A DNA stretch of 56,363 nucleotides, filler included, from Sluysia triapertura (lineage: Eukaryota): assembly GCA_046118255.1 (NCBI GenBank). It is 4 parts of 4 records of this genome, joined end to end, with 100 filler letters (N's around TTAATTAATTAA, not from the genome) between each part and the next. Parts side by side here need not be neighbours in the genome. Positions count along the whole stretch, not along the records: positions 26,562 to 37,570 come from JBJNIA010190241.1; positions 37,671 to 56,363 come from JBJNIA010129738.1; 2 more parts are not named here. One strand, given 5' to 3'. The notes beneath the pieces were generated by a model. The model was given only the letters and a program-made list of their open reading frames with translations, was not told the DNA's origin and searched no databases. The position numbers were made by a program, and so were the translations under genes. Positions within the stretch are counted from its first letter, which is position 1; the number at the start of each line of letters is the position of its first letter. Below, piece by piece: positions 2,156 to 51,718 of the stretch.

Positions 2156-2703
2156 GATAATTTGACACACTGGCATGCGAAGCCAGTAATATCGGCCTTA
2201 TTTTCGATGCGCAGATACATGTGAATTTGAAATCAATATAGAAAATACTAAATCTAATAACTGAATTAATAATTTATAATTTTCAGTTATAAAAATAGTT
2301 TCAAATCTAAAATAAACGAAACAAATTAAATCATTATTATCATTATTATCCATTTTCATAAATTATTATTTTCTCAAATCAATAAGTATCTCGTGTGTGC
2401 TTTTTAACAATTTGTTTCTACTGTGTGTGTGTGTGTGTGGGTGATTTAATTACCACGATATTAATTTTCAAGTGTGTTTTCATTTTTCTGTGTGTATTGT
2501 TTATTCTATGGGTGCATGCATGATGACAATATGATTCGTTGTGATTCAATATGATTGGTCCATAGTTTGAGAAATAAATATGAATTATGATAGCAAAAAG
2601 TTAAAATTTACATTATCTCATTACTTTTATTATATAAATAATTTTACAAACGACATCATTGGTGGTTATGCATATTCTTGTAGGATGAAAACTTTGATTT
2701 GTA

Positions 2704-3170
2704 TAAAGGTGTACCAAATGTAACCGAGTCGCAAAGTTAAATAATAAATTAGATCTCAAAAACGACAAAATTAATATTTAGTATTTACAAATGTTCTAAA
2801 TGTCCATCTTGAACTTCAATACAAGCACAACACTGCGACATATTTTCTGGCAGTTTCTGAAATTTGATTCCATTCGTGCTGAATACTTTGTCTTAGTTGA
2901 TCAATTCTCCTTAGAAAAAAAATCAGGCGGTATCAGATCCGGGAATCTAGCAGGCTATTTGATTGGTCCTCAGTGTCCAATCCAATTGTTTCATCAAGCC
3001 ATTATCGTGCATCTTTGGTTTAGTGCGCGTATGCTCCATCTTGTTGAAAATGAAGATCACAGAAATAGGAAAACTCATTAACAATAGGAAACACTTTAGT
3101 GTTCATCATATCAAGGTAACGTTCACCATTAACAGTTCCTCCAAATTCGGAATCAAGATTTGAATATTGC
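2704..3170 (-). mobile_element. Tc1/mariner DD41D (rosa/Visitor)-type transposon remnant, copy 1
   Basis: Minus strand reads GTVNGERYLDMM..LHFQQDGAYAH*..WLDET..WIGH*GPIK*PARFPDLIPPDFF..FEHL*, with stops and deletions. A TIR follows TA at 2702-2703 and matches the reverse complement of 7745-7810. Confidence 0.88.
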
Positions 3171-3768
3171 CGACTCATTCGGTACAGGTGCTTAAGATAA
3201 TTTTACTCGAATATTATGATAACATGTTCACCGACACAAAAAATGTTGGGTTCCTGATGTGACATTGATTTTTTGATTGATCAATATCGGTTTTTAGGAA
3301 TGTTAATTATAATAATATTTTTAGTATTTGAAAATAATTATTTTTATTAATTAGCATGAGGCTATATTTATATCTATATGTAGCTATCTTGTCACAGCAT
3401 CAATAACGAGAAGCACCGCTATAGCCATCGCTGTCTCTGAACGTGTAAAAATTTCATTTCACATTATCTCTACATAATCCTAGTTTACTATACTTTTATT
3501 TATTTGATTAACTGCAATAGTAGGGTTTAATGTTTATAAATTTTGATTTCATCTCAATTTAAAATGATTATTATTTATTACTATATTTTCATTTTATATT
3601 ACGTCTATGTAATCTCAATTTTTTAAAATTAAAATAATGATTATAAGCATTATACTTTTTACAATAATAATAATAATAGTAATAATAATATGAAAATACG
3701 ATTTTCTTTCTATCTGAAAAGTATTATAATAAGCACTTTTGAGTACTTATTTTTTGTATATATGTATA

Positions 3769-3814
<46 letters not shown>

Positions 3815-6800
3815 ACATCTCAAAATTCTGATAGTCACAGTGCTGGTTGAAGTAGAACGACGGTTTAAGCTTAGCAGTATTACCGATAATTGGAGCGATA
3901 AGAACTAATTTTACTTAGGTAGATTTTAAATGTATTTCTGAAATCAAGTTTATTATCAATCTTTATATCGAAGCAAATTAAGTATTGAAATTTATTCATA
4001 TCGTTATTATTATTCTATTTATATCTTGCAGTAACATTTCGATTAGAGTTAAAAAAATTTATTAATTTTAAAATAATTCAAAACGAAAATTTTCTTGTAT
4101 TTTTTAATTAATATATCGACTATTCGATTATCAATTTTAAAATTATCATTAATGAAGATTCTTATAAATATTGAACTAATATTTGGTAAATAAACAACTT
4201 GGTAAATATTGCAAACTATTGATAATATCAAAACAAATTAAATAAAAACATATAAAGTCAGTAAACACAACATGGAACTTTTTATATATATAAATATTAT
4301 AATTAACAGGGCATATTAATCTCAAGCTGACAATGAATTTTTTATGAACTCTAGATACAAATCTATATGATGATATTTAAGAAACATACTATTTAAGACA
4401 ATAGTATGACTTACTGAAATAAACTAAATGATTAAATGGTGCTAGCATATCGGCACCAAATTCATTGACAAATTGGTATGTTCATTTTTTATACGAAATG
4501 ATAATTATGTACTTTGAAATCACAATTAGTCAAAAATATTTCGCTCTTGGAAAAATATTGATAACAAAAACTCATACGGAAGTTGTTTGTTTGCACATCA
4601 TCTAAAATTTTACGAAAAATCACAATTGTTCTAATTTTCTTCTGAGTAAACCTTGCTAAAATTTTACAATGACAATAAATTGTATTTAATTATTGGCATC
4701 ATCTAAAATTTGAAGATAGATTTTTGGGAATATATTTATCTATATAAGTAAATCGATGATGAATTTTATGTACTTCGGATATACTTTTTATATAGAAAAT
4801 ATTTATGTTCGAGTTTTGTAGTTTGCCAGAAATCACTCGGGCTCTCTTTGAAATTGACTTTACAACATTTAAATTTTTGTCCAAGCAGAGAAAAAATCGA
4901 TTATAAACTGGAAGGTTTATATGACGTTAAATAAAAATTTTTCTACACGAATTTACGATATATACAAGAGGTAAAAATTGAAAGATCAATTTGTTGAGCT
5001 ACTAATTTTTGACTAACTACTAATTTGAGTAGTGTCTTTATATTGATATAAATGGAAACATTATACCTTGCCGTATTATTATTAATATATTATTGCTATT
5101 ATCATTATTAAATTATTGTTCAATTGCGACCACTTTCCATTAATTCATCTCAAATTGCATGTCATGTTTTAAACACTATCTTCGACAGAAACTTCATCTA
5201 TATCTTCGGCCTGAATGATTTATCTTGATATCGAATATAGTGATTCAAAAAGGTTAAATTTTCTTACATCATGTTCAACTAAAAAAACGATTGCATGAAT
5301 CATCTCAAGTCTTTCATTATTTAATAATTCTGCTCTTCTGATGTGATTTTACAGCTTTACTAACTGCAATATATGTTACTACGTATTTTAATTTACGGTA
5401 AGCTTTCTCTATTTTTGGTGCAAAATTCCACCTCATTTATCTATGACTTTGGCGTGGTAAATGTTTTCAAATTCCTGTAGACATGTTCTCAAGGTCGAAA
5501 TAAAATCTTTCACATCTTGCAATTATTTTGCGACATAAGATAGTGCACAACTTCTCTCAAAGTGCGACTTTTTGTACAAGATATGAAGAGGAACAAAGAA
5601 AGTAACTAAGATAGAAGGTTAGGGAGAAATAGGAATGTTATTATAGAAATTTTATTATAATTTTTATTTATTTTTTAATGTTTATATAAATTGTGATATA
5701 TTATATAATTGTGGAAGTATTTATTGTTTGTGTGATAGATAAACTTTTAAGATGAACCACCACATCGTATTTACTTTGAATGACGATTAGATTGTCTTAA
5801 AGGAATACCCGTACGTGAAATAATATTCTTTTGCTTGATATCGACTGAGCTGCTTCATACTGAGGTTAAGTTAGATTAAATTAAAAGCAATATCAATACT
5901 TAAACTTATCTACCATTATCTTCACTTTAATCTGTTAAAAAATATATATATTTGCTCAGTAATGAACTGACTATTCAGAATAATATGTATCAGTTATTTT
6001 ACAAATTATTTTAGAAATCCAATAAAAATTGTATTCAGCGATGCTATATTAATGTTTTTAATATTTTCAGAAAATATTCATATTGCCTTTGTAGAACTTT
6101 TGACAGTTCTCATAACGGTTTTATTGGTATAATGCGGGATACATATTAAAATTCAAAAGAGTGCACATTTTCTAAAAATTTTCAATTTTTGATAATTTTA
6201 TTACACATTTCATCGATGGTCATAGAAGCATTAATTAGGAAAATTTTTATTCCAGAATAAACACCATCATTTTTCAGATATTACGTTGCGGTAAAATAAT
6301 TTGATTTATGCATAATTTTTTGTTTTAATTTTTGAAATTTTTAATTATTTTTTATTTCATTTTAATAAAAATTTAGGTTTTAATTTTAGTTTTGTACATT
6401 TTGAAATTTTAGAATGTTTATTTTAAGATTGTTGAGATGTTAATAAGAATATTTAAATTTTATAAGAATATTGAAAGCAATTATGAATTTAAAATGGTAA
6501 AAGTAAAGTAATAATATTGGTTCTAGATCAATTTTTACAGGTAATTTATTATTTTTTTACAGTTTTAAGACCAAAATCAAGTAAGATGTAAAACTTTACA
6601 TTTTTATATCAAGATTATAATTTAACTTAAAGTAAATTTTAGTAAATCCCAATTTGCTCACAAATAAAGTTTTTACATTTCAGATAGATCACTAGTGAAA
6701 CTGTAGCTGTAATATGTAGAAAATCAAGGCCGATGTAAATTTACTATAACATATTAAATAAGAAATAAATAAGATGAAAATATAGCTAGAACTATGTTAT

Positions 6801-6961: not shown

Positions 6962-7169
6962 GTAAGTCATTTTAAATTCGAATGATGCATTTAATATTGA
7001 ATATAACATAAGTTACAGTTACAGGTGTAAGTGGATTTTAATTGAATCGTGGAAAAAAAACTTTCCGAAGAACACAAGTTTGTGGTATTTTTAGGATCAT
7101 AAAATTATTTAGTTTTCAAATAAAAGGAGAAACTAAAAATATCACAAAGAGAGATACAAGAAATAGATT

Positions 7170-7810
7170 AAAAATTAGATACCAAAAACGACAAATTTAG
7201 GTATATTTAGTATTTACAAATGTTCAAAATATCCACTTTGAACTTTAATACAAGCACGACACCTTTCGACAACTCTTCGACATACTTTTTGGCAAGTTCC
7301 TTTCGTGCTGAATGTTTTGTTTCAGTTGATCAATTATTCTAGGCTTTTTAGCATAAATTGCATCCTTTAGAATTCCCATAGAAACAAATCAGGCGGCATC
7401 AGATCTGGGTTCCTCGGTGTCTAATCCAACATCTTTGGTGTAGTGTGCAGGTTCTCCATGTTGAAAATGAAGATCACAGAAATGGGGGAACTCATTAACA
7501 ATAGGAAACAGTTTATTCAGCATGTCAAGGTAACGTTCACCATTACTGCCGATTCCAGCCCAGACTGTGACTATAGGAACAGTGACTTCATTTCAATAAT
7601 ACGATCGGGATTCTCACTGTCTGTTAGCATGCTCATCCAGTTTGAAGTAACGTGCAATCCTGGTGATTCTTCACGAATTCTAATCGTTTATCCGGATCAC
7701 GTAGGGCATGAAGAAGATGAGGAAATGACAAAAGAAGAAATTACATTTTGTCGTTTTTGATATCTAATTTTTATTTAAGTTTGGCGTTAGGTAACTTTTG
7801 GTTAGCCTCT
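7170..7810 (-). mobile_element. Tc1/mariner DD41D-type deletion derivative, copy 2, with both TIRs
   Basis: AAAAATTAGATACCAAAAACGACAAA at 7170 is inverted relative to TTTTGTCGTTTTTGATATCTAATTTTT at about 7746. Minus-strand peptides: SENPDRIIE, VTVWAGI, NGERYLDML, PDLMPPDLFLW, LKDAIYAKKP, RCRACIKVQSGYFEHL*. Highly similar to 2750-3130. Confidence 0.88.
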
Positions 7811-12798: not shown

Positions 12799-12898
12799 NN
12801 NNNNNNNNNNNNNNNNNNNNNNNNNNNNNNNNNNNNNNNNNNTTAATTAATTAANNNNNNNNNNNNNNNNNNNNNNNNNNNNNNNNNNNNNNNNNNNN
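12799..12898. other. Assembly gap with TTAATTAATTAA linker
   Basis: 100-nt block of Ns with a central six-frame-stop 12-mer at 12843-12854, identical in three gaps. Confidence 0.97.
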
Positions 12899-26746: not shown

Positions 26747-27247
26747 CACTAAGCTATGGATATTTGCATTAATCCCAATGAGGACTATTTTTGTTTTCAA
26801 CATTCTATTATTTTCAAATGTTTCGGACGAAAATGTATTATTAAATGTATTAGTGATGTCGATTTGGAAAATATATCACGTATTCTTAATATTCAAAGAC
26901 ATTTTTGATAGTACTCATACTTTAATTATTGATAATGTTAATTATTGGAAATGTTATTGTGATGTCACGCCTATCGATAATAATTTTATCATCCTTAACA
27001 TTTATAAAATTTCACATTCAACCTTTCCACTTTATCGTAATCTACAAATAATATTCTACAAATTTCGAAATTTTTGAACTAACTTTCCATATCAATATCA
27101 TAGTTCCTTTCCTCTGATCATCATTCACATCACTTTTGTAATTACTATCCATATTACCTTTATTATTTTATTATTTTTATTACTTTATTATTTTTATTAA
27201 TTTTTAATTATGTTACGAAAATTTTAGAAAATAATGTTTGTTTTAAT

Positions 27248-27940
27248 ATGCAAAGTATGATAAAGAAAAGTTGTAAAAACAACAAATTCTTAATTAATTT
27301 TAATATTATAGTACTTGACAAACATAACATGAATGCAAATATAAATAAGGCGTTTACCTTAGCAGTCTTTTTAAGCAACAAAGTTATGGAGCTCAAGTTA
27401 AAAGTATCCGAACTATTACATTTTAAAGAAGAAAACCAGATATAGGTTATTAATAAAGAGGCTGTTTCTGATGATAGGACGATATATAATATTGATGTAA
27501 TGAAGACCGAAACGGTAAATAATGGATCTGTATCATTTTTATGTCTGGCGACTGATGATGAAATTTGAACACCAGAAATGAATACCAGTCTTGGAGATAC
27601 ACGACTCAATTTTGGTATTGAAGAAGAGTTTAGTAAGTCGTTGGTTAATTCAAATTTTATTTTTACAGTAACAATTAATGTTGGTTTCAAATTGTCTAAT
27701 AATCAACATCGATTCCTAATTGTATGCATATGTACAAAGTCTGAGTCAAGGGAAGCTATCCTTGTGCCACCAAATGATTTAAAATGTATCACCATAAAAA
27801 GTGCTAGTAAGGCTACACCTGTTAACTATTTCCGAAAGAAGTTTCTGATGAAATTTAAGAACTTGTCTGACCATGATTTGGTATATATATTAATGGTATA
27901 TATTCCTAATGGAAGATGTTCTAGTGATTTAAAATGTTAA
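27248..27940 (+). pseudogene. Decayed ORF of about 230 codons, unknown family
   Basis: ORF-track pieces 27248-27445 and 27578-27940 are in one frame, interrupted by only two stops. Preceded by the shared leader module near 27088. Confidence 0.6.
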
Positions 27941-28054
27941 CTAATTTAAATAGCCTAAAGACCTCAATTACATTTAGTCGTAATAAATATTTTAAACTCA
28001 TGCATTTAGCTAAATATATTATGTCACTGTATGTTCTAGTACCTTTTGTACTTT

Positions 28055-28400
28055 ATTTAAACACAATGCCAAATAACCTACCTTTTTAAAGGTTATGCAG
28101 TCGTAGTAGAGACCAGGTGGAACAAGAACACGTGTTAGAATTGATTAAGTTTGAAAATCTCGATGAGCTGTACTGCACTATATGAGAACGTTCTGTAATT
28201 GAAGATATGCAGCGTTTCTCTCGAATCACACGCACAATTAGCATTAAAGAATGTATAAATATAATTCCATTTATACATACTCGAAAACATTTCACGGCTA
28301 TTTCTTCAACTTCTGAAAGGACATTAGACACATTGGTTATATAGGTTCAGTATGAGGTCAAAACTGCTTTCAACGAAAAGGATTCTCTTCATCATATGTA
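28055..28400 (+). pseudogene. NDOR1-like (diflavin reductase FAD-binding domain) pseudogene fragment
   Basis: RLCSRSRDQVEQEHVLELIKFENLDELYCTI*ERSVIEDMQRFSRITRTISIKECINIIPFIHTRKHFTAISSTSERTLDTLVI*VQYEVK parallels the NDOR1 stretch E.EKL.E..EL..Y..RR+.E+..DF..IP..L+P.I.PR.FSIASS..LV.VVQ+. In-frame stops; no intron seen. Confidence 0.7.
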
Positions 28401-29060
28401 CATAAATTTTTGATGCGTTTTATGTTTCATAAATTTTAGAAATTTTTTTACTGGTTGTAAAGGAAGGTTTTATTTTGTTTTGTGCTTTTCATTTAACGAA
28501 TTAATCCTAGGCCTTAAGCCTACTGTTCATTTCGAGTTTAAAACATTTAGTACGGACCTTAAATCCTATTTTAGCAAATTAATTTAATTAAGTCCTTCTT
28601 TTGTAAATCATTTTTATTTAATTGCCACAAACGCTTTTTGAATACAAATAATTCATCGCAAAATTTTCAGTTTTATAACACTCGACCATCACAGTTATAT
28701 GCGTCAAATAGAAACTGGAGTGCTATACTACATAAAATTGAAAATACCATCCATTCAATTACTTGTAGCTAAATTATTATAAATCTGTGTAAGATTTTTA
28801 TAACTTTTATTTAATCATACACAAAATATCTTGAATTAATTTTGCGGCAGAGATACTTGGAACAGAAGGAAATGTCGAAGAAGGTTCTCAAAGATTATGG
28901 TAACAATAAATATAATAAGTGGTAATTATGTCCAATGACTGTGTTTGTTTTTGAATGAGTCAAGTAGTTTATTTAGTGTTTTGTTTATGTAAAAAATGTT
29001 CATATGTGATAAAGTGTGTTTGTAATTTTGATTTGAATATGTGTAGTTCCCTACAACAAC

Positions 29061-29293
29061 CAAACTGATTTAATGGTAATAATGCCATATTTAAAAATTA
29101 GTAATGGTAACAAATATATTTTAAATTGTTCTGATGTGTTTTCAAGATTTAGAAGAGCAGTTAAATCAAAGAGTGGTAAAGATGTGATTGAAACAGTTTC
29201 GATTTTAATTAATAACGATAAAACTATAAATTAAGGTAACGAGTTTTACAATAAAGATGTGAAAAAATACTAGAAAGACACGGAATTAATCAA
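29061..29293 (+). mobile_element. Maverick/Polinton-type retroviral-like integrase fragment
   Basis: QTDLMVIMPYLKISNGNKYILNCSDVFSRF..VKSKSGKDV..*GNEFYNKDVK../LERHGIN matches the c-integrase pattern QADL.DM..N.GYKYIL..IDVFS..LK.K.G..V..D.G.EFYN. Contains deletions, a stop and a frameshift. Confidence 0.85.
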
Positions 29294-29800
29294 ATAACCA
29301 AATAAAACAACGAATTAAAATTTTACAAACACGAAGGAAAACATACTTAAAAACAAATTTAGAAGTTGCGAGATTACAAATTGTATCTTTATCACTTAAG
29401 GAATCATGACAAAATTCTTCTATAAATACTTTATCACGAATCATCTTGCTGCTTTTAGTTTTGCATTTGATAGAGTGAAACACCTGAACTTCTTGAGTCA
29501 TCATTGGAGATAAATAACTAAGAATGAGGTTGGACTAGGTGTATCTGAAACTGGCGACATTCAAATCAGTTTTAACAATGTTGTCATCTTCGCAAAAATC
29601 TCCGCTACTCTTTAGTACATTTGAAACTGTGCTGCCTTCAAACATTGTTGCATACCATTTAACTTTAGCATCTTAATCATCTTCGCAAATAGAAATAGAG
29701 TTAACCGTTGCAGATATCAACATAGCGTTACTAAAATTTGTAATTTCATATGGCATGTCTCTTGATCTGACATAGAAAGTGTTTTTAATGTTTGATTTGT
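29286..29800 (-). pseudogene. Decayed ORF of unknown family
   Basis: One frame open for about 160 codons with two stops (..DMPYEITNFSNAMLISATV..KWYATMFEG..EEFCHDSL..). Confidence 0.5.
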
Positions 29801-30269
29801 CTTTTCATGTTGAGATGCAATTTTGTTTTATCCTAGATATACGTGGTGCTTCACTACACACGACTGTTTTGTTACTACCTTCACATATAAATTTATACAT
29901 ACATTCATACCTAAAATTATATTTAATTCACACATAAAACGTTCTCAATACATTTCCATCTCAATTTACTCAATTTAAACTACAAGTCTTGTAATAAATT
30001 ACAGCTTAGTATCCAACAGCAATTGTATTACCATTTATGCATCTTCTATGGTCAGTTACTACTTTTCCACTTTATATTTTTGATTATTTTAAGATTATTG
30101 ATTTATTAAAAAATTATTTTATTTAACAATACCACAGATCATCCAATAAAAACTCGCTATAATATAAATAAAATTTCAAATAATTATTTATTTCTTTTTA
30201 AAACTTATATCCATGTACACATACAATTTAAATTTACTAATATAAATAGCCAATAATATCAAATATTTT

Positions 30270-30900
30270 ACGAATATCACGGACTAATCAGAAGCAGACA
30301 GTTCGTTGTTTTGTATATAGATCAAAATAAATAAAATTTTCATTGGGTGGGATAAATATAATAAACTAAGGTTTAATCCAATCACAAACAAAATAATTTT
30401 CAACCAATAATGCGAGTTGAAAGATTTAAATACAAACGTAGTGTGAATAATTATTAAATCACAAATCTATGCTTCAATCTCATTGGTTTAAAAAACCAAC
30501 CAATCACAATAAATAAGTTTCATTTTGTTAAATTTTAGCTAATAAATGATATATTAAACTAAATATTCATTTCTATTTCTAAAATATAAAATAATTTTTG
30601 AATAATCTATTAAAAAATTCTATTTATATTTTAAATAATTATTAAATTTCTTTTTATTGTAAATAGTAATCATTCATTTAAAAAACAAAATTATTTATAA
30701 ATTTTAATATCATTTTTCATAATTTACATAAACATTCTATTTTTATTGTCTATTAGGAAGTAATAATATTAATAATCAATTATAAATACTCCAATTTTGT
30801 GATTGGATTATAATTATCCAATAGGATTACGTTTTTATTAAAAGAACAAACTTTTATAAAAAGCGTATATTCGAGGAAAATAAAGCGATTTATCTATCAC
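30270..30900. promoter_or_regulatory. CCAAT-box cluster with outward-facing TATA boxes (putative bidirectional promoter)
   Basis: At least seven CCAAT/ATTGG boxes between 30342 and 30822. TATA-like elements at about 30318 (-) and 30855 (+). Confidence 0.55.
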
Positions 30901-31971
30901 TGTATAATTTAGAAAAAACTTATACTAAAACAAAAAAATAATATTCAATGTTTTTTACTAGTTTGATAAAAGCATTGTTTTGTGAATTGTTGGGTCTTTG
31001 GAATAAATTATTGAATAACCTTAATATATCACCGAGATCTGTCATTCAACAGTGTACATTAATTAAAACAATATTTTAAACATTCCGTAACACCAATTAA
31101 AATGAAACACAAATTGATGTTACGCTTTGTTTGAGGTAGTAGTAGTAATAGTAGTACTAGTTGAAAACAATTCCTATAATCCAGTGATTATTTCAAAATA
31201 TTCGGTACCAAAATGGTTTTGTACCTTTTGTCATTAATAAAAACTTCTTAAGAGATAATATTAATTTATGAATTAATATTTTAGCATAAAATAAACTACT
31301 TATTAATGTAAATAGCTAATAAATAACATTTTATATAAACTTTATTTTATTAAAGTAGATAATATATTTTATTTGTCAAAATGAATTTATGACGTTTATA
31401 TTTCTCAATTATCATTTCGATGTTGTGATAGTGCGGTCATTAATCGAATAATTACACTTTCTCGTAAATTTCATTCCATCTACTGCTTTTATTTTAGAAA
31501 TATAAATTCCTAATATTTATTATAAGAAGTTAGCAACTAATAAGACAGTAACTAACATCTGAGTTAAATAGGATAATAAATAAATGATAAATGAATCCTA
31601 TTCGATTTATTATTTAAATAGTTTGTTCTTTTAATAATAATAATATAAAAATTTTAATTTTTGTTGCTATTGTTATACGAAAATGAAAATATAGAAGATG
31701 AAGTTGGTGAATTCGCCGTAATGGTAGTTGGTAAAATTGGAACTTGATAACTGGTGGAAGCTAAAGAAGGAATTTGTGACACCGAAGATCGATGAAAGTT
31801 AGATTGAGAAATGGAATTATTTTTATTTGTATTGGTAGTAGTTGCTGGTGTAATAGAATTTGCGGCAGATATTGACATGGATAGTGATAAAGAAAGAGAG
31901 TTATTGATCGGATTATTTGAGTGGTGTAGTTGCGACGTTGGTGTAACTGGTTGTAATGGCACTATAAGTGG

Positions 31972-32201
31972 TTATAATGTGTGCTCTGAATCATCACCGA
32001 ATAACAAGTGTTGGCCAATGGGAGCTTGGATTTTGAAAAGACGACTTGTTACTTCTTTCAGGTCAGAGAATATTGTTATTAATAGTTTGCTATGTCGTAG
32101 AGCTTGGTCTCGATTCAGATAGGCTAGGGCAGACAATAACTGAGAATACGTTGGTTCTAGGGGACCGTTTAAATAACTGGATGTTGGATGATTTCGATCG
32201 T
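31972..32201 (-). CDS. Putative terminal exon, nuclear-receptor ligand-binding-domain C-terminus-like
   Basis: AAG acceptor, phase 1, then DRNHPTSSYLNGPLEPTYSQLLSALAYLNRDQALRHSKLLITIFSDLKEVTSRLFKIQAPIGQHLLF. Resembles LBD helices 9-11 (AL......R+.KLL.+..L+.+). The family call is tentative. Confidence 0.45.
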
Positions 32202-32844
32202 CTTAATTTTATTAAATTATTATTTTGGATTAGATCATTTTTAAAAATATTTGTTAGAGAATTATTCTTTATTTTCAATAAATAATCTAAAGATAATAAT
32301 AATAATAATTTCATAAAAATCAACATATAAAAAGAAACATTTGTTAAGAATTAGTAAATATTTGTTTCCAGAAGAGAATATCTTTATTAAAAATAAATAA
32401 ATAATCAATAAATAAAGATTTGTTTCTCAAATCGATCAGAAATACATTTTCTTTCGCTTTTGTTGATTTTCTGTGAAATCTTATTTTGTTACGTAATAAA
32501 GGAGGAATAAAAAATAAGCCAAAAAAATCCAAATTTTTAGACAATTTTAAAGATCGTCATAAAATCTACTCAAAAAATCATTAATTAAAAATATTAAGAC
32601 TTAATATATTAAAAAGTTGATTTTATTATCTTTTGTTTATATATTTATATTTTACTTGACATCATGTATCTTGTTAAATAAAAATATAATTTTATTTATG
32701 CACAGCCAAAAGATTAAACGCAGAAAACAGGTAACATTTCAAGTAACCAATAAGAATTAAAGTACCGATCCGTTAGTGAAGTTAAATTTCATAACAGTTT
32801 AATCTGGCTAGATACCTACTTACAATTTATAAAAGTTTTTAAAT

Positions 32845-32910
32845 TTAAAATCCTATATGGTACCCCCACCAATCAGGTCATAAGACGCCAACTACAGATG
32901 AACTCCTTAA
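32845..32910 (-). repeat. Terminus-like module, reverse orientation
   Basis: Reverse complement reads TTAA-GGAGTTCATCTGTA...TAGGATTTTAAA with the same 48-nt spacing as the other copies. Confidence 0.55.
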
Positions 32911-34255
32911 TTCTATGAACCTTCGAATTTAATTTAATATAGAATCTTAATTAGTTTAAAAGTACGGTATTGCTGAGTTGTCTTACAAAATTCATCAAAA
33001 TGGTTAAATTTAAAATGGGTTCGAGTTACAATCCGCAGCTTACAACATTCAGTAGACACATCTGTAACTTTTACAATTTACACTTCACATCTTTGTGTAA
33101 ATCGTTGATGTTATATGATGTCAAATAATCGATTCATTAATATGTTTATCAAAAATAAACAAATCAATTTATATTACGTAAACTTATAATAAATAAAAAG
33201 ATCAATCAATATTTTATTTTGTTTTTGAAACTTTTAATAATAATAATAATAGTGATGGCCGAAATATTATTAATTACAAAAATCTGCTACATAACTATTA
33301 CCACATATTTAATTAAAATCTTCTTAAAAACCTTTATTAACAAAGTTTTACTTATATTGATAAAACAACATTAAGATCACGAGTTGGATATAAAAGGTCA
33401 TAAAAAGTCTTACGTTTTGAAAATCGAAATTCGATCAGTGAAACAAAAACTCCCGAATCATGGAAATTTTGAGTTTTGAGACTATATCCGTAAGGATTGC
33501 GCGAATAATGTGAACTAGATCATAACATATTTGAAATCAAACTTGTAGAATGAATTTTCCAAATGCTTTCCGATATTATTTTGAATTTTTATTCCATGAT
33601 AGCTAATCGCTCTTTAACATCATCATAGTGCGTTGAGGAGAGCCTTAAGTTGCTGTTCGAGACATTGCATTCATCTGTTGAAAACACACCAAAGTAATAC
33701 GCAATAGCGTTTTTGAATTCAATTAAATCATTCAATAGTTTTCCGACAGCTAGAGCATGTATCCATGAAATAACTAAGTAACAACACTTCCAAAGGTCAT
33801 CTTTGCCATTCTTTTGAATGAAACTCGGAAAACATCATAATCTAACTAATTTATTCAATAGGTGAAATATTCCTATGACGTTAATCTTCACAGAAAAAAC
33901 ACATTTTGTGTCAACATATTGAAATTCATCATAATTCAAATTCGAGTCAAGTTTTCAGTCATCCTTGGACTTCTGATTGTAAAAGTCACCGCTTGAATAA
34001 AAATTATTTGTATTTAGATTTTTCTTTTAAAAGTTATTTCGTCGGTAGACATTATAATGCTTTTTAAATTTGCTCAATTTATTCAGAATCTTCTTTTTAG
34101 ATTATTTTCTGTTTACAAATTAAACTACTTTTCTTTTTTTTATTAAATTTTTAATCACTCAATATTTAAACAACAAGTCTTTTTCTTTTAAAATATTCCA
34201 AAATATCCTGCAATTCATTTTTGAGCTTGTCTGTCTTCTGGGTTTATTTCTAGTA

Positions 34256-34426
34256 CCGTATTTTCTTGTGTATAATCCACACTTAATATATAACCCGCAT
34301 TATAAAAATCAACTTTTATTTAATATAACCTGCACACATATTTCTAAACTAATGATTTATAACCCGCACCACAAAAATACACTTTTTTCAATGTATAGCC
34401 CGCGGGGTATAGGCAAGAAAATACGA
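34256..34426. mobile_element. pogo/Tc2-type MITE, 171 bp
   Basis: TA-CCGTATTTTCTTGTGTATA ... TATAGGCAAGAAAATACGA-TA terminal inverted repeats with TA on both sides; internal TATAACCCGCA repeats. Confidence 0.85.
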
Positions 34427-35607
34427 TAATACCTTAAACACACAAAAAAATATTTTTTCATTTTCACATCAAAAATCCCGATTCATTTCTATGTAAGGCT
34501 TATCACATTGTTCTAAGAGTTTTTGTGATGTATAGACATTTAAAACTTAAGGAAATGGAAACAAAAGAGATAACAATAAAAAAGGTAACGTACCACAAGC
34601 ATATAATTAGTCATTTTTTACCCTGTTTTGCTTACACTTGATCTATAAACAACATACGTAAATTAGAAAGAGAATGTGTTGAGAGAATTATGTAGGTGTT
34701 CTCGGAAGTGATGCTGAGGCGGAATAGAAAAGGCGATATCGATGGAACTAATTATGATATTGATATGATAGATTGTAGTAGATTAAATGTTGCTTTTATT
34801 TTAAGTTTTGTGGTTCGTGTGATATGAGATGAGGTTTCGAAATGTATTTGTATTTGTATTTGTACGCGGTAACAACAACAACAATAATAATAATTTAAAA
34901 CTAATCTCCTACAATTCAAAAATAGTATAAATAGTATAAATAAATGATATAAGTGAAATATTTTATAATCGTTAGCAAATAAAGCTGTAAAATTTTTATA
35001 ATATTCACAAACTTAGTAATTGTTCTTTGCAAACTTAATTTAATTCTGGATGCTTTCTTGTATGAGTTTATTTATATTGACGTACTTTATATATAATCTT
35101 ATGATAAATGTTAATCAACTTTTGATGCAAATTTAATTGAATTTTTTTAACTTTGTCAATACGTATTCTCACCTTTCACAGTGGTTTGAGCTGCTTCAAT
35201 TAGAAAGTAACTGTTGAAATCGTTTCTCAGTTAATTTACCTTACAGATTCTTTATTGCTTTTTATCAAACAATATTTATTTTATATAGAAACTTGGGCTC
35301 GGATACTCGTTCCGATGACCGGGAATGGAAATGCTGTGGTTGCCCAGCCTACACCTGCCTACATATCACATCAATCATAACATTCATGGACACAAAGCTC
35401 ATTACAAAAGATTACATTATAATAAGTTTCATCTACATCATTCACAACATTACAACACTCATCCTTATAAAATCTCAGATGCCTAATAAAATCCTTTTAC
35501 TAACATGTTTAGATCAAAATAAAACGTAGCGCATTGTCATCTCGCCATCATTACGATACAATACCTTTTTGTCTGTATTTTGTTTTTATGTGGGTTTAGT
35601 ATTCTTT

Positions 35608-35867
35608 AAAAGAAGCATTAGAAATTTGAGTATTGAAGGCAATTTACCTTTTCAATTGCTTAATTATGTTGAAAATGGTGAAGCTGAATTGATTCGATTA
35701 AAAAATCAAGTATTTCGATTAACACAAGAAAATAATTGGTGACAAAATGAATTAGATGAAATAGATTAGAATGCAGTGAAAATAACAGAATTCAATTGGA
35801 AGAAAATAAACATTGGGAGTTTATGCAAGAAATGTGTCAATATGATTCTGTTGAAAAGAAAGAAATT
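35608..35867 (+). pseudogene. Kinesin light chain N-terminal heptad-repeat pseudogene fragment
   Basis: LLNYVENGEAELIRLKNQVFRLTQENNW*QNELDE/RLECSENNRIQLEENKHWEFMQEMCQYD parallels KLC E.EK.KLRAQVRRL.QEN.WLRDEL..QL..SE....QLEEEK.HLEFM..+.KYD. One stop, one frameshift, no intron. Confidence 0.85.
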
Positions 35868-36186
35868 TGTTTTAATATTCGAAATTTTATTGTATATTTT
35901 TGAAAGTCGCATATTTTAAATGTGCGATGCTGAAGAAATTTTTAATAGTTTAGATGAGTTAGGAAATGGTTTTATTAATTATAGTCTAATGTCATTTAGA
36001 AAGACAAGAACCCATATATGTGGAATTACTGAGAAATCCCTAACAATCGGTCTAGTGTTTACCGAAAAGACGGGAAGTCATACATGTGGAGTTACCTTTA
36101 GAGCTGTTCCAGAAGCTTAATTCTAATCATTCGAAATATGAACCGTTGTACCTGTAATATATTTTTCATAATAACTTTCTCGATTT

Positions 36187-36229
<43 letters not shown>

Positions 36230-37570
36230 AATGTTTTCGATTTAAAGATTTTTATATTTCTAAGCCTCATTATGGTGATTATCAGCATTTAAATGAATTC
36301 GTAAATTTGATTTGTGTTGTAAAGAGAAATGTTGCACTTAAAATCGTTTTTGTTAACACTGATAAAGTAACTCACCGATGTGAATCAGAAGATTTGATTC
36401 CATACGATAAGGAAGATGTAGGTATTGGTTTAAAGAAGCCACATAATTCGATCTTGAAATTTACGTATCCAATAAAAAGTCTACAGCGGAATCAAAATGC
36501 AATTTCGTATTATTCTATGTCGAGTTTGAAATCGAATAGCTATAACTTTTTTGAAATAATTGTTTATAGTATAAATTTGAAATTAATATTGCATCACATC
36601 CCAAGTAATAATGTTCCTATTCTAAAGAGAGCTTCAGACTACATGGTTTGTGGAGTTTAAGATTTCATGGACTGTTTATTTAAATTTTGTAACCAAGTGA
36701 AACAGGAACACTATTTTGATTGGTATCGATGGTGAGTTAGTAGACCTACGAGTTCACAGTGTTATTTTTAATCAATTTTTAATTTGAATTTTGAAATTAA
36801 CATTCGATTTAAATTCTGGGATGTTTGTTTTGCTTGAGTACACGATGCATCGTTGTTACAATAACTTACTTGGATGATGTATTCCCACAACCCAGTCATC
36901 GAACTAAACTTCTTGAATAATCCTTTTATTCTCATGTTTTATCGTGCAGATGTAATTTTTTATCACGAGTTTAACATTTTAGATGATTTTTAAAATTAAA
37001 AGGATGGACAAAATTAATAGTTACAACGCATACCTACGTATTCGTCGAGGCCAGTATAAGGTTTTAAATAATTTTAAAATCAATTACAGTTACATTATTG
37101 TTTGCATTCTGTATGATTTTTTATCATGTCTAAGCCTTATTGTATAACTTATATTGTTCAAAAATTTGGGAAGAGTGCATTCGGTGGACTGATATTCGAT
37201 AGAGCCATGATTTATAACGAATGTAAGTCTTATATCATTATGGTTGTTAATTTTTTTAAATGTGTCACATTTTTTGTCAATTCCATCTTATTTGTGTATA
37301 ATAAAAATTTTTCATACAAAAATTTTTTATATAAAAGTTTTCCTTCATAAAGAAATTTTCGAGTGTCTTAAGCACCGATATTGTCATAACTGTAGACTTT
37401 ATATAAATAAAACGCCTAGTAATAATATGAGTAACAAAAGAGATAGCAATAATTTTAATTTCTTAAATAATAAAAATAATTATCAAATAAGCGCAAATGA
37501 ACTTTTATTCTTTAATTTTAATTTTAAAAAAGAGTTTTATATTAATTGATGAAAAATACTCAGATTTACT

Positions 37571-37670
37571 NNNNNNNNNNNNNNNNNNNNNNNNNNNNNN
37601 NNNNNNNNNNNNNNTTAATTAATTAANNNNNNNNNNNNNNNNNNNNNNNNNNNNNNNNNNNNNNNNNNNN
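37571..37670. other. Assembly gap with TTAATTAATTAA linker
   Basis: N run with linker at 37615-37626. The linker supplies the artificial stop of ORF 37619-38497. Confidence 0.97.
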
Positions 37671-38585
37671 GTTCTATGCAGATTCTGATTTACATCGGCG
37701 AAGATACCAGTTTTATCAGTTATTAAGTTATCCACATCGTAGTTCAAGACCAACGTTACTAAAGCTTCTAGTTGTTCAGGATGAAATTCACTTTGATTTT
37801 CAAATATATTCAAAATACATTTTAAACTTTTAAAATATCTTAATAACAGCTCCTTTTCACACTTCAGTAGCATCTCAATATAACGCGTACGTGCTTTCAA
37901 CACAGTAACGTTTGAGCATTCACTATACGTCGTGTTCGCTAACTTTTGCTTTAAAATCTCAAATCTGATTTTCAAATCAGCACGTATGTTCTTTTCCAAA
38001 TTGTTACGTACGGCTTTATTTATGAAATTTAATGATAATGCTACTGAAGATGTGGAATATGTAGAAGATGTAGCTTCATAGGAGTTACTTGATTTTGAAC
38101 GTTCTAATAAATCAGGAAAAAACATTTTATTCTCATTAATAACTTTACATGAATCGATTATAAAATAAAAGATGAAATAAAAATTTAAATTAATATTATA
38201 CCGAAGTTCATTTTCTAAATTTAAAATGATTAAAAACCAGTCATCTTTTTTAACCGTTCTTTTGAAAAATAGTTTACAACCTTCACGAACACTAAATACG
38301 CTTTCAGTTTCGGAAACAGGATTATTTTTATTAAAAACACCTTTCACGTAACTTCTATTCGGTAAAACTCTCATATTTAAATTGAGACACTTGTGATAGT
38401 TCTGATATATTATCACGAAACATGCTTTTACTTTTATTCGTACCATCATTGTCATCACTATCCTCGTGTGCATATTTATCGTCAACATCAACATCACTTT
38501 TAAACTCCTCTAAATCGACATCAGTATAAATACTATTGCATCTGTTTGTTACCATATCCCACCGTTCTGGAATTGTGCTCTTCAT
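37671..38585 (-). pseudogene. Myc/Mxd-network-like bHLH gene, frameshifted (pseudogene or assembly error)
   Basis: Acidic N-terminal ORF (38585-38355), a frameshift, then KAVRNNLEKNIRADLKIRFEILKQKLANTTYSECSNVTVLKARTRYIEMLLKCEKEL at about 38027-37845. Compare HN.LE+.RR.+L+..F..L+...+L..A..YI. Confidence 0.65.
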
Positions 38586-39384
38586 CTGGCTAAATTTCTT
38601 AAACTAATTTGAAAGATTAAAAATTTTTAAACTGTTACTTCTTTAAACATTTTAATTCGCAAAATTATATTGAAACTATATAGATCATTTTCATAACATA
38701 CAAAGACATACCATGAATCAATATTCTAATAGATAAAAATGATAATAATAATAGTAGTAGCAATAATAATAATAATACTATAATAATAATAATAAATCTA
38801 ATAATTGTGGACCATTTCATATAGTACTAATTTTATGATACAAAATAACATATTTTAATTATTTCCAATTTCAAACAATGCATGCGTAAGATTTCTCGTA
38901 ATAAGTAGCGTTATAATATTTTCGATGAACTGTTTAATTGTTTGTTAATGTGAAATTCAACAACTACTGAAAACATTGACACAATAATTTACATTTACAT
39001 TGAACATTATGAAATAACAATTCTAGTACTGAAGATTATAACCAATAATCAATAATCAATTATACATCATTTCATGATTATATATAAACTTGTAAGACAA
39101 AAATTAATATATTTTATGATAAGTTATTACTTTGATTTACGTAATTAATAGTTAAAAATACTACATCCATTCAAAAATGATTGTCTCATTATTCTTGTGT
39201 ACAATGCATATTAACATCAATTTCGCATTACCCAACTTTTATTTACGAAAATATTTTATTACTAATTATATTATTACATATATCGTAATGTTAATGTTTC
39301 TGCAAGTTTATCCTTTCTTCGCAATGCTTATTTCCTACTATATATTCTAGTAGATGGTTATAGCTGTGATTTGAGTTTACCTGT

Positions 39385-39963
39385 TTATATCAAAATCATT
39401 TCGTACTTTCTTTTTTGTCCATAAGCAATTGACTGAGAAATTCTTATATGTTCTTTGAATAACACATAATCTAAGTTATTGCGAATTTGTTGCACTTCCT
39501 TTGCATCCATTTTTGATGTTAATTTAACAAATTCCATTTGTATTTCGTTTTCAGACTTAAAGTTATTCAATTTGTCTTTATAAACTGGCTTCAATTTCCG
39601 TAATTTTGATGAAATGCATTGTTTACTTGAGTCATCGGTATAAGGATTATGGAAAATATTGTGTAAAAAATTAAAATACAAATCACTAAAATAATTTCCA
39701 CCATATTGCTTCCAACTGATATCAGGAAAAATATGGTATAAACTAAGCATGAATCTGTTTAATTCACTTGAACTATAAGTTCTAATCATAACATTAATAA
39801 TCTTTTTAAATTTAATAGTACGATTATATGCGCTACGAACGTTATCAATTTTCCAATTGTAATCAAAATTAAGTGACAATTTGTATACATTCATTGGATA
39901 ACATATCACTAAAAGAATATTCATCCCGGGGAATTTTATCTTCGTATTGATTAATGAATCCAA
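39385..39963 (-). CDS. Intronless 192-codon ORF of unknown function
   Basis: Long open frame for this base composition, protein-like residue usage, upstream TATA/Inr and shared leader. The first in-frame ATG is internal. No family recognised. Confidence 0.5.
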   Translation of the reverse strand: MDSLINTKIKFPGMNILLVICYPMNVYKLSLNFDYNWKIDNVRSAYNRTIKFKKIINVMIRTYSSSELNRFMLSLYHIFPDISWKQYGGNYFSDLYFNFLHNIFHNPYTDDSSKQCISSKLRKLKPVYKDKLNNFKSENEIQMEFVKLTSKMDAKEVQQIRNNLDYVLFKEHIRISQSIAYGQKRKYEMILI

Positions 39964-42399
39964 ACGACAAATCCAACTTCGTTACATTTAACCAATTAAT
40001 AATAATAATGATAATGATAATATCAGATATAAATTATGAATGTTTATACTTAACAATAATAGTAATAAAAATACTAATAATAAAAAAAGGAGTGATATAA
40101 TGTTGATACTGTTAGGAGGGGCGATGTCGGTGGATTGAAAGTAACATTGTACGATATTATTGTAATTTAGATGTATTATATCTTATTTAACTTACGCAAT
40201 ATTATATTTTATTTAATTTAGGGTGTATTAATGTACTGTGTTTAAAGTGTGTTACTTTTTCGGTGTTGTGTGTACGATGTGGCGAAAGTGTATTGCATAT
40301 TAGATATTAATGATTGGTGGGTAAGAGGTTGGTGAATGAGTTGACACTACACAACTTTTCATTTGTTTTTATATCAAATAATACAGAACTTTAAGTCCGA
40401 ACCTCATTTTAAATTAATGCTTTTCTAGCCTTATAATTTAACTAAAATAATCAAAATAATCACCTTACAGCCATTAAATTTTTTCTAAACGCAGAAAAGA
40501 ATATTTTTTGTATTATTTATCCAAATTAATCAAATTTAGTAATTCATCTGCATTGATTTAATTCATATCGAAAATAATGTGAGAAGTTAAAGAATTACTT
40601 GCATTAGTAGTATGAGGTATGTTTTCACTAAAAAATTTAAAAATTGATCCAGTTATAGATTGAGAATTAATAGAATTAGATGGAACAATACTGATTATTT
40701 CTGAATCAGAATCATCTAAAGTTTTCAATGAAAAACCACAAACGTATTGAATTATAAACACAAAAAACATATTTACTGTTAGATTTTAGACTTTCTGATA
40801 TTACTGGAATTATTGCTATTGTTTTGAGATTGTCATTACATTGACAGACTTGCTTTTTAAAAACTATCAAATATTTTAAATTTCGCACTCGTTATTTGAC
40901 TTATTATTATGCACGAATTCGATTGTAATCCACCTTTTATATTCTATCGAGCGTATTCTTTTTTTCGTTTTGAAATAGCATTGTAAAACAATATACGCGG
41001 CTAGTAGGATCGAACACACAAGAAGCACAAGGTTTAAAAAGAGGCTCTGCTTCGACAATTTTTCTAAAAAAATTGATACGTCTGCATAATAAATTATAGG
41101 CGAAATTAGAATTTCCGTCGTGCCGCTAAATTGGACGAAGGAGGCAATATCAACAAAAACAATTACGATTCATTTATAATATAATTTGTAGATTACTACG
41201 ATTTTATATATTAATATTCAGTTATTCTGAATTTTGTAAGTTGAGTGAAATGTGATGAAGTTATGAGATGGATGAAATGTTTATGAGGTTGATGGAGTTA
41301 TATTATTGTATTATGTTTAACAATAAAAATGAGGTGTACTATAAGAATAAAAGCATTGATAAAGTATTTTATGAGTTCAAAATGAAGTTTCGTGGATATA
41401 TGTAGTATTTATGATATAATGTAATCGTGGTAGATGGCTGGACCACGACAATTTCCTTTTCACTTATCGCGCTCCAAAGGGGAGCCGAAATGATACATTC
41501 TCAAATTAACACATTTAAAAGCACACACTACAGTAACATCATACACCTTACATTAAGATATAACATTTATAATTTTGATCCTTTTTCAGATTCTAGATAT
41601 TCTTTTTACATGACTAAATTTGAATTTCTACTGTCAGAATAACATAAATACTGAGTACAACAATGTTCGTTCAAATAATCAGTTACACTATTTATCTTAT
41701 TCACAATTTAAATATAAATTGTGAAATTGTAATTACTTATCACAATTGCTTTATTGTAACTATGTAATTTGAAGAAACTGTAATTAAAATAATTATCGCA
41801 AAAAATTGCAATTATTTATAATTGTTTATGTGAATAGAATTTGAAATAATTATTGAAAATTGAAAATAGCATTTCAGCTAAATAATCTAACTAATTTCGT
41901 TAATTGTCTTAGTAAAAATAGTACGAATAGAGGTGAATCGATACATGACTACAACTATAAAGAATAAATTACGACAAGCAGACATAAAAGGCTATCAAAT
42001 ACTTGTTAATTCTAATATAATTTTGGTGGATTAAACAGAGTTTTTTGACTAACAAATCCGTTCTCAGCCAATAGTGATCTCTGACTCTTTCAACTTTATT
42101 GTAAATTACTTGAGCTTATTGTTAAACTTTTTCCATTTTTTAAAGAAAGAGTTAAATTCAGACTCAAAATCGTTTCACTTTCCCAAGCTATTTTAAAGAT
42201 AGCTTTAAATTTTGTTTATTCAAATATTAAAAGCAATCTTAATATTTACATAAATTATTTTTTATATTTTATTTTCAGTGTTATTAGATGGTATTGTTAT
42301 CAAATTTTTTAATAAATTCCTATTTTAACAAGAAATTATAGTTAAGAACGTATGCTGTAGACGATTTTCGTCATAAAGTTTTAATCAACAATTAATTAT

Positions 42400-49681: not shown

Positions 49682-49853
49682 NNNNNNNNNNNNNNNNNNN
49701 NNNNNNNNNNNNNNNNNNNNNNNNNNNNNNNNNNNNNNNNNNNNNNNNNNNNNNNNNNNNNNNNNNNNNNNNNNNNNNNNNNNNNNNNNNNNNNNNNNNN
49801 NNNNNNNNNNNNNNNNNNNNNNNNNNNNNNNNNNNNNNNNNNNNNNNNNNNNN
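49682..49853. other. Assembly gap without linker
   Basis: Run of Ns. Confidence 0.98.
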
Positions 49854-51718
49854 CAAAAATAATATGAACTTTCGAAAAAAGATAATAATTTTCAAAAATG
49901 AAAATATATTTTCTAAAAAACGAAATCCAAATTCGAGAACATTCTAGAATTTTCGATAAATTTCATTGATTCGTATATAATTTGGTATAGATTTAATAAC
50001 ACAGTTTTAATTTGAATAAATGATTTTCAGAAGGATTACGGGAATTAAGTGTAACATCCATATTTAGTTTTCCATCCGAATTTAGTAAGTTATTTTCGGT
50101 TAAAGTTGTTAAAACTTTAAGCTGCACTAAAAATCAATTTTAATTAAACCGTTTAATTCTTTTTAGTGGTTCAACATTTTACTTAAAATTTTGTCAACAA
50201 TTACAATAACATAACTTCACTCTTTACACAACACAAACCAAGTAAATAAGACTTAAATAGCTCAATATATAAAATCGTTAGACTCTAAAATAACCTCCTA
50301 AAAGTATAAAATAACATGATAATGAAATTTCTCTAAAAGTAAACCGATTTGATTAAATGTTAAGTAATAATGCTTCAAGTCTTTCTCTGAATCATCAAGA
50401 TTTTCCTAAAAATACATTTTGACAAGCAGTTCAGTTCCTAATAATAACCGAACCGGATCTACGTGAAAACAGGACCAATCCTTAATCACCTTCAGTAGTT
50501 TCTACAAGTACTTCCATTCAATCATTCAGTGATTCTTGAAACAATTCTGAACTTTGCACTACTTATAACAGTCTCGGAGGGCGTCCCTTTACCCTCCGTT
50601 AAGCACGTAACTGTTTATGTAACAAGTAAATGTAACAACACATGGGACCATTCCAGTTCGATATTTGAAACTAAAAGCAACATAAATACTAGTACTAATC
50701 ACCTATTATCTGATCCTACAAATTCACATCCATCAACGAACAGTGTTAAATCATTCCAAACTTAGGTCAGCATACTTCACACAAAATCACATTCCATAAC
50801 TTTTTACCCACTAGAACCATTCTCATTTTAATACATGTTGTATTACAAATTTATTATATCAAAATCACTTCTACATTCAAAGCCATCATTACACATTAAA
50901 TTTTATTCAATACATTTTTCAACATCCAAACCTTTTTTCCACTCAGAAACATTGCAGTATACCTAAAGATTCTTTTAAGACATTCATCCTTTATTTTATA
51001 AAATTGGAATTGTAATTACACCTTAAAAATTTTATTTAAAATGTTAAAGCTTTGTTTAAAAAACATCCGCCCTTAAGACTTCTAAAGATATTTATAATAA
51101 TTAAAGAAATTATATGTTCAGAAATAAAGATGAAATAAAAGAAAGTTTATGTTCGAAATAAATGATTTATGTTTTTTTTCGAATCATTTTATTGTTATTA
51201 TTATTTTATTTTATTCTTATTTGATTTGATTATCGTTACCATCATTATTATTTGAAGTTATAAATTTTACAAACAATTTTAATTTCATCGTAACTGCCAA
51301 CAATTGACAGTTTTAATTAATTATGGCTGTATCAACCTAATTTACTGTCAATTGTTGACAATACACATACAGACACCTTGTTCAACTTTTCAATGGATTG
51401 CTGTACTGACGATCAAGTGGCTAAATGTTAATTATTGGACACACACGTTCACCAATTCATCGTGTGTATTTGATGATATATGCAATCAATTTAAAGTTAC
51501 TAAATAAGATCATATAAACTTATAATTGGTGGACAGTGAAAAACACAAACACACAAAATAGTACAATCTCAAAAAGAACAAATCAGAAAAATATAATTTT
51601 TGTTGAATTTTATTAGAAACAATTTCTAGTCTTAAAAAAATTATCAAAGTAATTAGTTGATGTCTGATGAACCAAAAATGGATAATAAATTCTTTATGAA
51701 GAACTACAAACTACAAAT

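Follow-up and report, generated by a model that had tools for sequence, protein, structure and literature searches.

A dispersed, decayed repeat ahead of unrelated gene fragments in the genome of Sluysia triapertura

Capture of host gene sequences has been reviewed as an activity of many classes of mobile elements (PMC6431247). Among them, the pseudo-long terminal repeats (pLTRs) of Penelope elements have been described as mobilising host genes in trans, with Pen3a-NRPS of Adineta vaga as the example (PMC3846280), and a leader that contains an intron has been described for the Penelope pLTR (10.1101/2021.04.23.441226). In this work we analysed a 56,363-nucleotide stretch of Sluysia triapertura DNA (assembly GCA_046118255.1; hereafter the window, GC content 25%), in which an original prediction had placed one portable leader cassette, in five copies, in front of different reading frames. 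Of the blocks concerned (A to E), B to E are members of a genome-wide, old, length-variable dispersed repeat, and A is a doubtful one. This decayed repeat, of 200-430 bases per copy, directly precedes gene pieces that are unrelated to one another and for the most part broken.

Relatedness of the blocks and copies elsewhere in the genome

The blocks, together with the contig join that separates them, were located as follows.

26960..27190, plus strand: Block A, doubtful member; a 15-mer in common with B and a 22-mer in common with E
34643..34850, minus strand: Block B; core, box at 34732-34740 and branch-point-plus-AG end at 34666-34643; headless
35290..35515, plus strand: Block C; head, core and branch-point-plus-AG end at 35500-35512
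37571..37670, no strand: artificial contig join; N44, six-frame stop linker, N44
40095..40380, minus strand: Block D, separate subfamily; box region 40094-40174 common with B; multi-copy in contigs
41065..41495, minus strand: Block E, longest copy; multi-copy in public contigs

The internal parts followed a collinear order on the C-rich strand, namely a head (C, E), a core, a GAYATYGCC box (B, D, E) and a branch-point/AG end, the latter aligning among B, C, and E. In Block E the GC-richer head shared with C (41381-41491) was accompanied by a CA-rich core, the box at 41143-41151 and a branch-point-plus-AG motif at 41109-41082; the corresponding motif was found at 40115-40109 in D and at 27079-27103 in A. 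Blocks A, B, and C share one contig, in which B and C are arranged head-to-head, and D and E lie on the next one. Since the join at 37571-37670 falls between both groups, their adjacency is a statement of the assembly only.

Plain blastn of the window against itself detected none of the block pairs, and under +2/-3 scoring the C-E alignment was not above shuffles (34/300 as high). Alignment scoring was then adjusted for 75% AT and the ten pairs were compared with three types of shuffles, 300 each. Three pairs clearly exceeded the shuffles, with identities of 67-70%: B-E (score 103, 0/300 in each shuffle type, 99/147 identical), C-E (score 86, 0-1/300 shuffles, 73/105 identical), and B-D (score 72, 0-1/300 shuffles, 55/81 identical). 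The links of Block A were weak and of low complexity (scores of 57 for A-B and 56 for A-D; 0-7/300 shuffles), and D-E, B-C, C-D, A-E, and A-C were not significant. Thus, the comparison with shuffles that the original prediction had proposed as its own test was cleared by three pairs, weakly by two more, and failed by the other five. Among 161 control pairs of real blocks involving 14 other C-rich blocks the top z was 4.6, a value surpassed only by B-E, C-E, and B-D (8.8, 7.5, and 5.3, respectively) and not reached by the links of A (z ~3); with long-gap scoring B-E alone remained above all controls. When all N-free 300-base tiles of both strands were searched, B with E and C with the 5' part of E were reciprocal best matches, and the best match of D was B. 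Leave-one-out profiles of the core set ranked the omitted B, C, D, or E first or second among non-training matches. The three supported pairs therefore link B, C, D, and E into one family through E and B. Of the five related blocks originally proposed, these four are homologous and A, not recovered by the profile, is doubtful.

The shorter resemblances on which the proposal had been built were also located. The words quoted for C and E occurred at 35327 and 41436, and the likeness of C to the reverse complement of 41110-41490 held as a match to E, best over 41381-41491 and not over the whole range. GGCRATRTC was present at 34732, 40120, and 41143 (3 found vs. 0.39 expected; 1/100 shuffles reaches 3), being a motif picked after it had been seen. 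The 15-mer CATATCAATATCATA was exact at 27088 (+) and 34753-34767 (-); no additional copy appeared when two mismatches were allowed, and 25/100 shuffles gave 2. Other C-rich blocks of the window (5551, 28851, 29851, 50651, 54051) were considered as members and rejected on the profile, tile, and control comparisons.

Copies outside the window were examined in contigs of one public run (X1), possibly the source of the assembly, aligned on 40100-42200, that is, on D and E. A total of 505 contig pieces piled on these two blocks, 387 of them below 95% identity (44 at least 99%, 74 at 95-99%, 183 at 90-95%, and 204 below 90%). Summed depth reached 2,600-3,900 over the cores of D and E vs. 18-43 in the lowest flank bins, with exact single-locus pieces at depths of 13-21. 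Up to 53 separate contigs carried one variant at one site. No piece fitted both D and E, which indicated that they are separate subfamilies. The part of E from box to acceptor was spanned by 15-29 contigs, in contrast with 2 over its downstream frame; six joints skipped 50-112 bases between core and box, as in the shorter spacing of B, and at 8 aligned variant sites B had the letter of the other copies at 4 and that of E at 3. Other neighbours were also evident, as two of the eight pieces listed (records 5 and 6) extended downstream beyond the match, by 165 and 113 bases. Homologous copies thus lie at separate loci with different flanks, as expected of a dispersed repeat. An exact pattern of the E core had no match in metagenome and viral contigs, and the three metagenome-contig matches to that of the D core were all attributed to chance (57-59% GC; flank identity 11-14/50). 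Additional multi-copy bins in the aligned contigs were 40881-40951, 41804-41874, and 42088-42200.

Reading frames downstream of the blocks

Each block was followed by a reading frame on its own strand.

27329..27940, plus strand: broken frame downstream of A; 203 codons, 2 stops, no family found
33352..34299, minus strand: broken frame downstream of B; 315 codons, 8 stops, no family found
35602..35897, plus strand: kinesin light chain remnant downstream of C; approximately residues 65-139 of KLC1; one stop, one frameshift
39385..39981, minus strand: frame behind D, open over 198 codons (179 when counted from the ATG at 39924)
40450..41064, minus strand: broken frame downstream of E; hydrophobic stretch, without ATG, several stops

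All five frames displayed coding-type codon bias (first-position purines 0.55-0.66); four were broken and that of D alone was intact. Kinesin light chain 1 was the best or sole solved-structure match of the remnant behind C (E 0.058 for residues 65-105 and E 1.8 for 110-139, the two segments lying in different frames), in agreement with the label given previously. This remnant is 5'-truncated, with the first 50-60 residues gone and no recognisable N-terminus, and protein searches gave no relatives of it. The frame of D matched no Pfam family; a MADF/Myb-like lead (score 0.82) was weak, its recognition staying below the threshold. The distal part of the frame of E had a paralogue in 2 contigs. 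An open reading frame (ORF) previously assigned to 40876-41100 was not sustained, as it lacks an ATG and starts within the repeat, whose repeated part reaches ~41070. No convincing pair was found among the 171 comparisons of 19 frames, so that the frames behind the blocks are without mutual homology at this level.

All five blocks were placed within 500 bases 5' of a frame of the same strand (background 0.28, P 0.0016), and the random orientation that would have spoken against the original prediction was not observed (5/5 the same relative to the neighbouring frame). Four of five lay within 150 bases and stricter cut-offs gave 3-4/5 (P 0.0007-0.002); the distance from B to its frame was 380-530 bases. 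No block split a frame, and window-wide scans revealed no further family copy lacking a downstream frame. A branch point followed by AG is the consensus expected at a splice acceptor site. This combination appeared on the module strand in 5/5 blocks and on the opposite strand in 1/5, against a background of 0.18-0.21.

Possible origins of the repeat and its sequence setting

The reading that we tentatively favour takes B, C, D, and E as fossil copies of a leader, derived from a mobile element of non-autonomous type to which pieces of host genes were fused time and again. The module would be the 5' part of a transcript, in which the start site is followed by a 5' intron, or an outron, with the branch-point/AG acceptor as its end. 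SIRE of Trypanosoma cruzi is an example of a dispersed repeat that donates splice acceptors. A retroelement enzyme acting in trans may have linked the module with fragments of host RNA or DNA and integrated the resulting chimera, and most chimeras would then have decayed. Given that four of the five frames are broken, the expression cassette, if it was one, is mostly fossil. The part of the portable cassette that stood was one repeated, many-copy module with unrelated coding remnants behind it in a constant orientation. Its action as a promoter or leader and the presence of reading frames next to the other genomic copies are putative, as is the joint movement of module and cargo, for which neither a target-site duplication nor a second flanking copy was found.

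Several observations weigh against a mobile leader. Target-site duplications around module plus cargo were above the null in 0/5 cases, although decay to ~68% identity would blur them; a poly(A) tail was not seen, no second copy was present in the window behind the frames of A, B, C, and D, and no reverse transcriptase or endonuclease family occurred among 110 window frames. Leave-one-out recovery was significant for B only (E 0.037), with C, D, and E at E 2-8 and A missed. The P-values for placement are partly post hoc and were inflated by the trimming of four frames at the module edge; furthermore, the blocks were chosen by a reader who had seen the frames, in a region 47% filled by decayed frames. 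The splice motif was seen before being counted and matches in position only in B, C, and E, and contig depth, which does not equal copy number, covered D and E only. Finally, C-rich blocks unrelated to the family (5551-5800, minus; 28851-29050, minus; 50651-51050, plus) also lie 5' of decayed frames, and could be other leader families or reflect a general strand skew ahead of genes.

Some of these observations would be accommodated if the blocks were ordinary fossils of an abundant repeat (a solo terminal repeat or a miniature element) inserted independently into a pseudogene-rich tract, with orientation due to chance plus selection by the reader or to insertion preference for gene 5' ends. 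The tract is indeed a repeat mosaic, which holds the additional multi-copy bins mentioned above, while remnants of Tc1/mariner and tRNA-derived type occur elsewhere; signs that module and cargo moved jointly were not found, and B is well separated from its frame. The lack of frame-less copies in the window-wide scans, the uniform orientation, the absence of frames split by a block and the shared acceptor-like end speak against independent insertion, which is less likely than the fossil leader but is its main rival. An improbable alternative is that a Helitron-type rolling-circle element lies on the opposite, GT-rich strand, with the module as its 3' end and the frames as captured antisense fragments within it. 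A Helitron is expected to start with TC and to carry, ~11 bases ahead of a terminal CTRR, a hairpin of 16-20 bases. Both C and E end in 5-pair hairpins, of 17 bases in C and 15 in E; a word that differs from CTRR by a single letter comes 10 and 14 bases later, respectively, at the point where homology stops, and the conserved core, variable spacer, and microsatellite recall DINE-1/HINE elements as described in PMC4067079. Against this, neither end is CTRR, folding was no better than in shuffles (z -1.6 to +0.5), there is no subterminal inverted repeat of 12-15 bases, and no part of E is repeated less than the head.

The better conservation of cores than flanks across copies, together with the acceptor-like end, would also suit a host multigene family whose upstream region was conserved, spread by segmental duplication and afterwards combined with other exons. 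We give this little credence, as the downstream frames, one being a kinesin light chain piece, are without shared homology, and the frame of E has ~2 paralogous contigs vs. dozens for the module. Least credible of all is a decayed protein-coding repeat of the opposite strand as the source of the blocks: shared words can be read in one frame of the GT-rich strand with several silent differences, and 9/16 variant sites fall in one codon position, but this excess is not significant over three positions (P ~0.15, hand calculation), stops interrupt every frame of the high-copy core, indels between copies are of many lengths, and 0/5 read-through frames match Pfam.

Returning to the fossil leader, a more specific form of it appears doubtful and is put forward as speculation. 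It would be a mobile leader lacking LTR pair, inverted termini, ribozyme, and tRNA head, which provides a start site as well as a 3' splice acceptor and is planted 5' of arbitrary host coding fragments, acting as a promoter-and-acceptor cassette, possibly via spliced-leader trans-splicing, and mass-producing chimeric genes of which most die and a few, like the 198-codon frame of D, stay open. If module and cargo moved as a unit, many independent gene captures by an element fitting no tested class would be recorded here, and the rates at which chimeric genes arise and die could be counted directly; if they did not, the blocks belong to a repeat family so far missing from the annotation, which would help in masking and in accounting for false gene calls.

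Regarding the surrounding sequence, artificial linkers join contigs at 12799, 26462, and 37571, and an additional gap is located at 49682. Decayed, apparently intron-poor frames occupied ~47% of the tract 26562-49681, and the part 12899-26461 was almost devoid of convincingly scoring ones. A deoxynucleoside kinase (dNK) gene was recognised by an exon at 1086-1479 (+; Pfam E 3e-18), with no close relative in the protein collection searched; its frame resumed ~5.4 kb further on, from ~6882 (+). Two decayed transposase pieces (2732-3142, 7158-7556) which, from their motif, we take to be of Tc1/mariner type were assigned to the 5.4 kb intron. An open, Max-network-like bHLH-zipper frame with an altered basic region (37673-38125, minus; Pfam HLH E 0.019, atlas score 0.85) is truncated by the contig join, had no family block upstream, and gave one uninformative match in the protein search. 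A tRNA-like copy at 15388-15459 (+; Rfam 40.7 bits, no ARAGORN call) and decayed heads at 17352 and 23362 (+) are probably a tRNA-derived short interspersed element (SINE). Other unclassified dispersed repeats, at 70-95% identity, were 26562-26746/54650-54835, 16451/16744, and 38237/11596, as well as the inverted pair 25450-25636/55401-55572. Exact look-up matched 0/8 sequences, and neither it nor the protein search for the kinesin light chain piece revealed parent genes. The dNK exon and its long intron, the Tc1/mariner-type remnants, the tRNA-like repeat, and the kinesin light chain piece suggest a repeat-rich, animal-like genome.

Comparison with described mobile elements

The blocks were checked for the features that define known classes. 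None of the seven sequences tested had a stable fold (z below -2), and no tRNA-like head or Rfam match was found in the blocks; in comparisons with the tRNA-like copy of the window, C was exceeded by 29/500 shuffles and E by 170/500. Rfam gave no hammerhead at E<=5 or 10 and a core motif scan matched only 27552 and 10620; old copies may have lost this ribozyme. Subterminal inverted repeats of 12-15 bases, as in Helentron/HINE elements, were not found. Of the LTR features (TG...CA ends, primer site, purine tract), the ends were judged by eye and none was exact. Only the frame of E is followed by a family block, namely D; D and E are not significantly alike, and no cargo framed by direct pLTRs, as in a Penelope unit, was recognised. 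Since the module did not match the defining features of these classes as far as they were examined, we list it simply as a dispersed repeat without a class.

Resemblances to described systems were partial in every case. SIRE of Trypanosoma cruzi is described as a non-autonomous dispersed repeat of ~430 bases derived from element termini (PMC6681497), and its parent VIPER is known; here no parent was found and the neighbours are mostly pseudogenes. The DINE-1/HINE Helentrons and Helitrons, as presented in PMC4067079, share with the module a length of a few hundred bases, non-coding nature, conserved core, variable interior, terminal hairpin, and association with gene duplicates, whereas subterminal inverted repeats and an exact CTRR end are missing from the blocks. 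In the LINE template-switch chimeras WEIRD-MGL of Magnaporthe grisea a constant non-coding 5' module is likewise combined with variable 3' parts; those described in PMC2104539 are retrotransposon copies with direct repeats and their 5' RNA is expressed, whereas expression of the present module is putative. The LTR-mediated chimeric retrocopies of PMC5131818 also place a host coding fragment behind an element leader, mostly in sense orientation, and are flanked on both sides by LTR-element sequence, in contrast with the blocks, where only the frame of E is followed by a family block. The pLTRs of Penelope resemble the module in several respects: a terminal module of ~200 bases, unrelated cargo, and head-to-head copies (B and C in this case). 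Promoter potential and a 5'-UTR intron at the body boundary, for which the acceptor-like motif is a candidate end, would be further parallels. They differ in that direct repeats and a target-site duplication frame the described Penelope cargo and that a hammerhead is present in canonical pLTRs; these features were not found here. Taken together, the module may be a non-autonomous repeat associated with captured gene fragments, with a putative role in expression.

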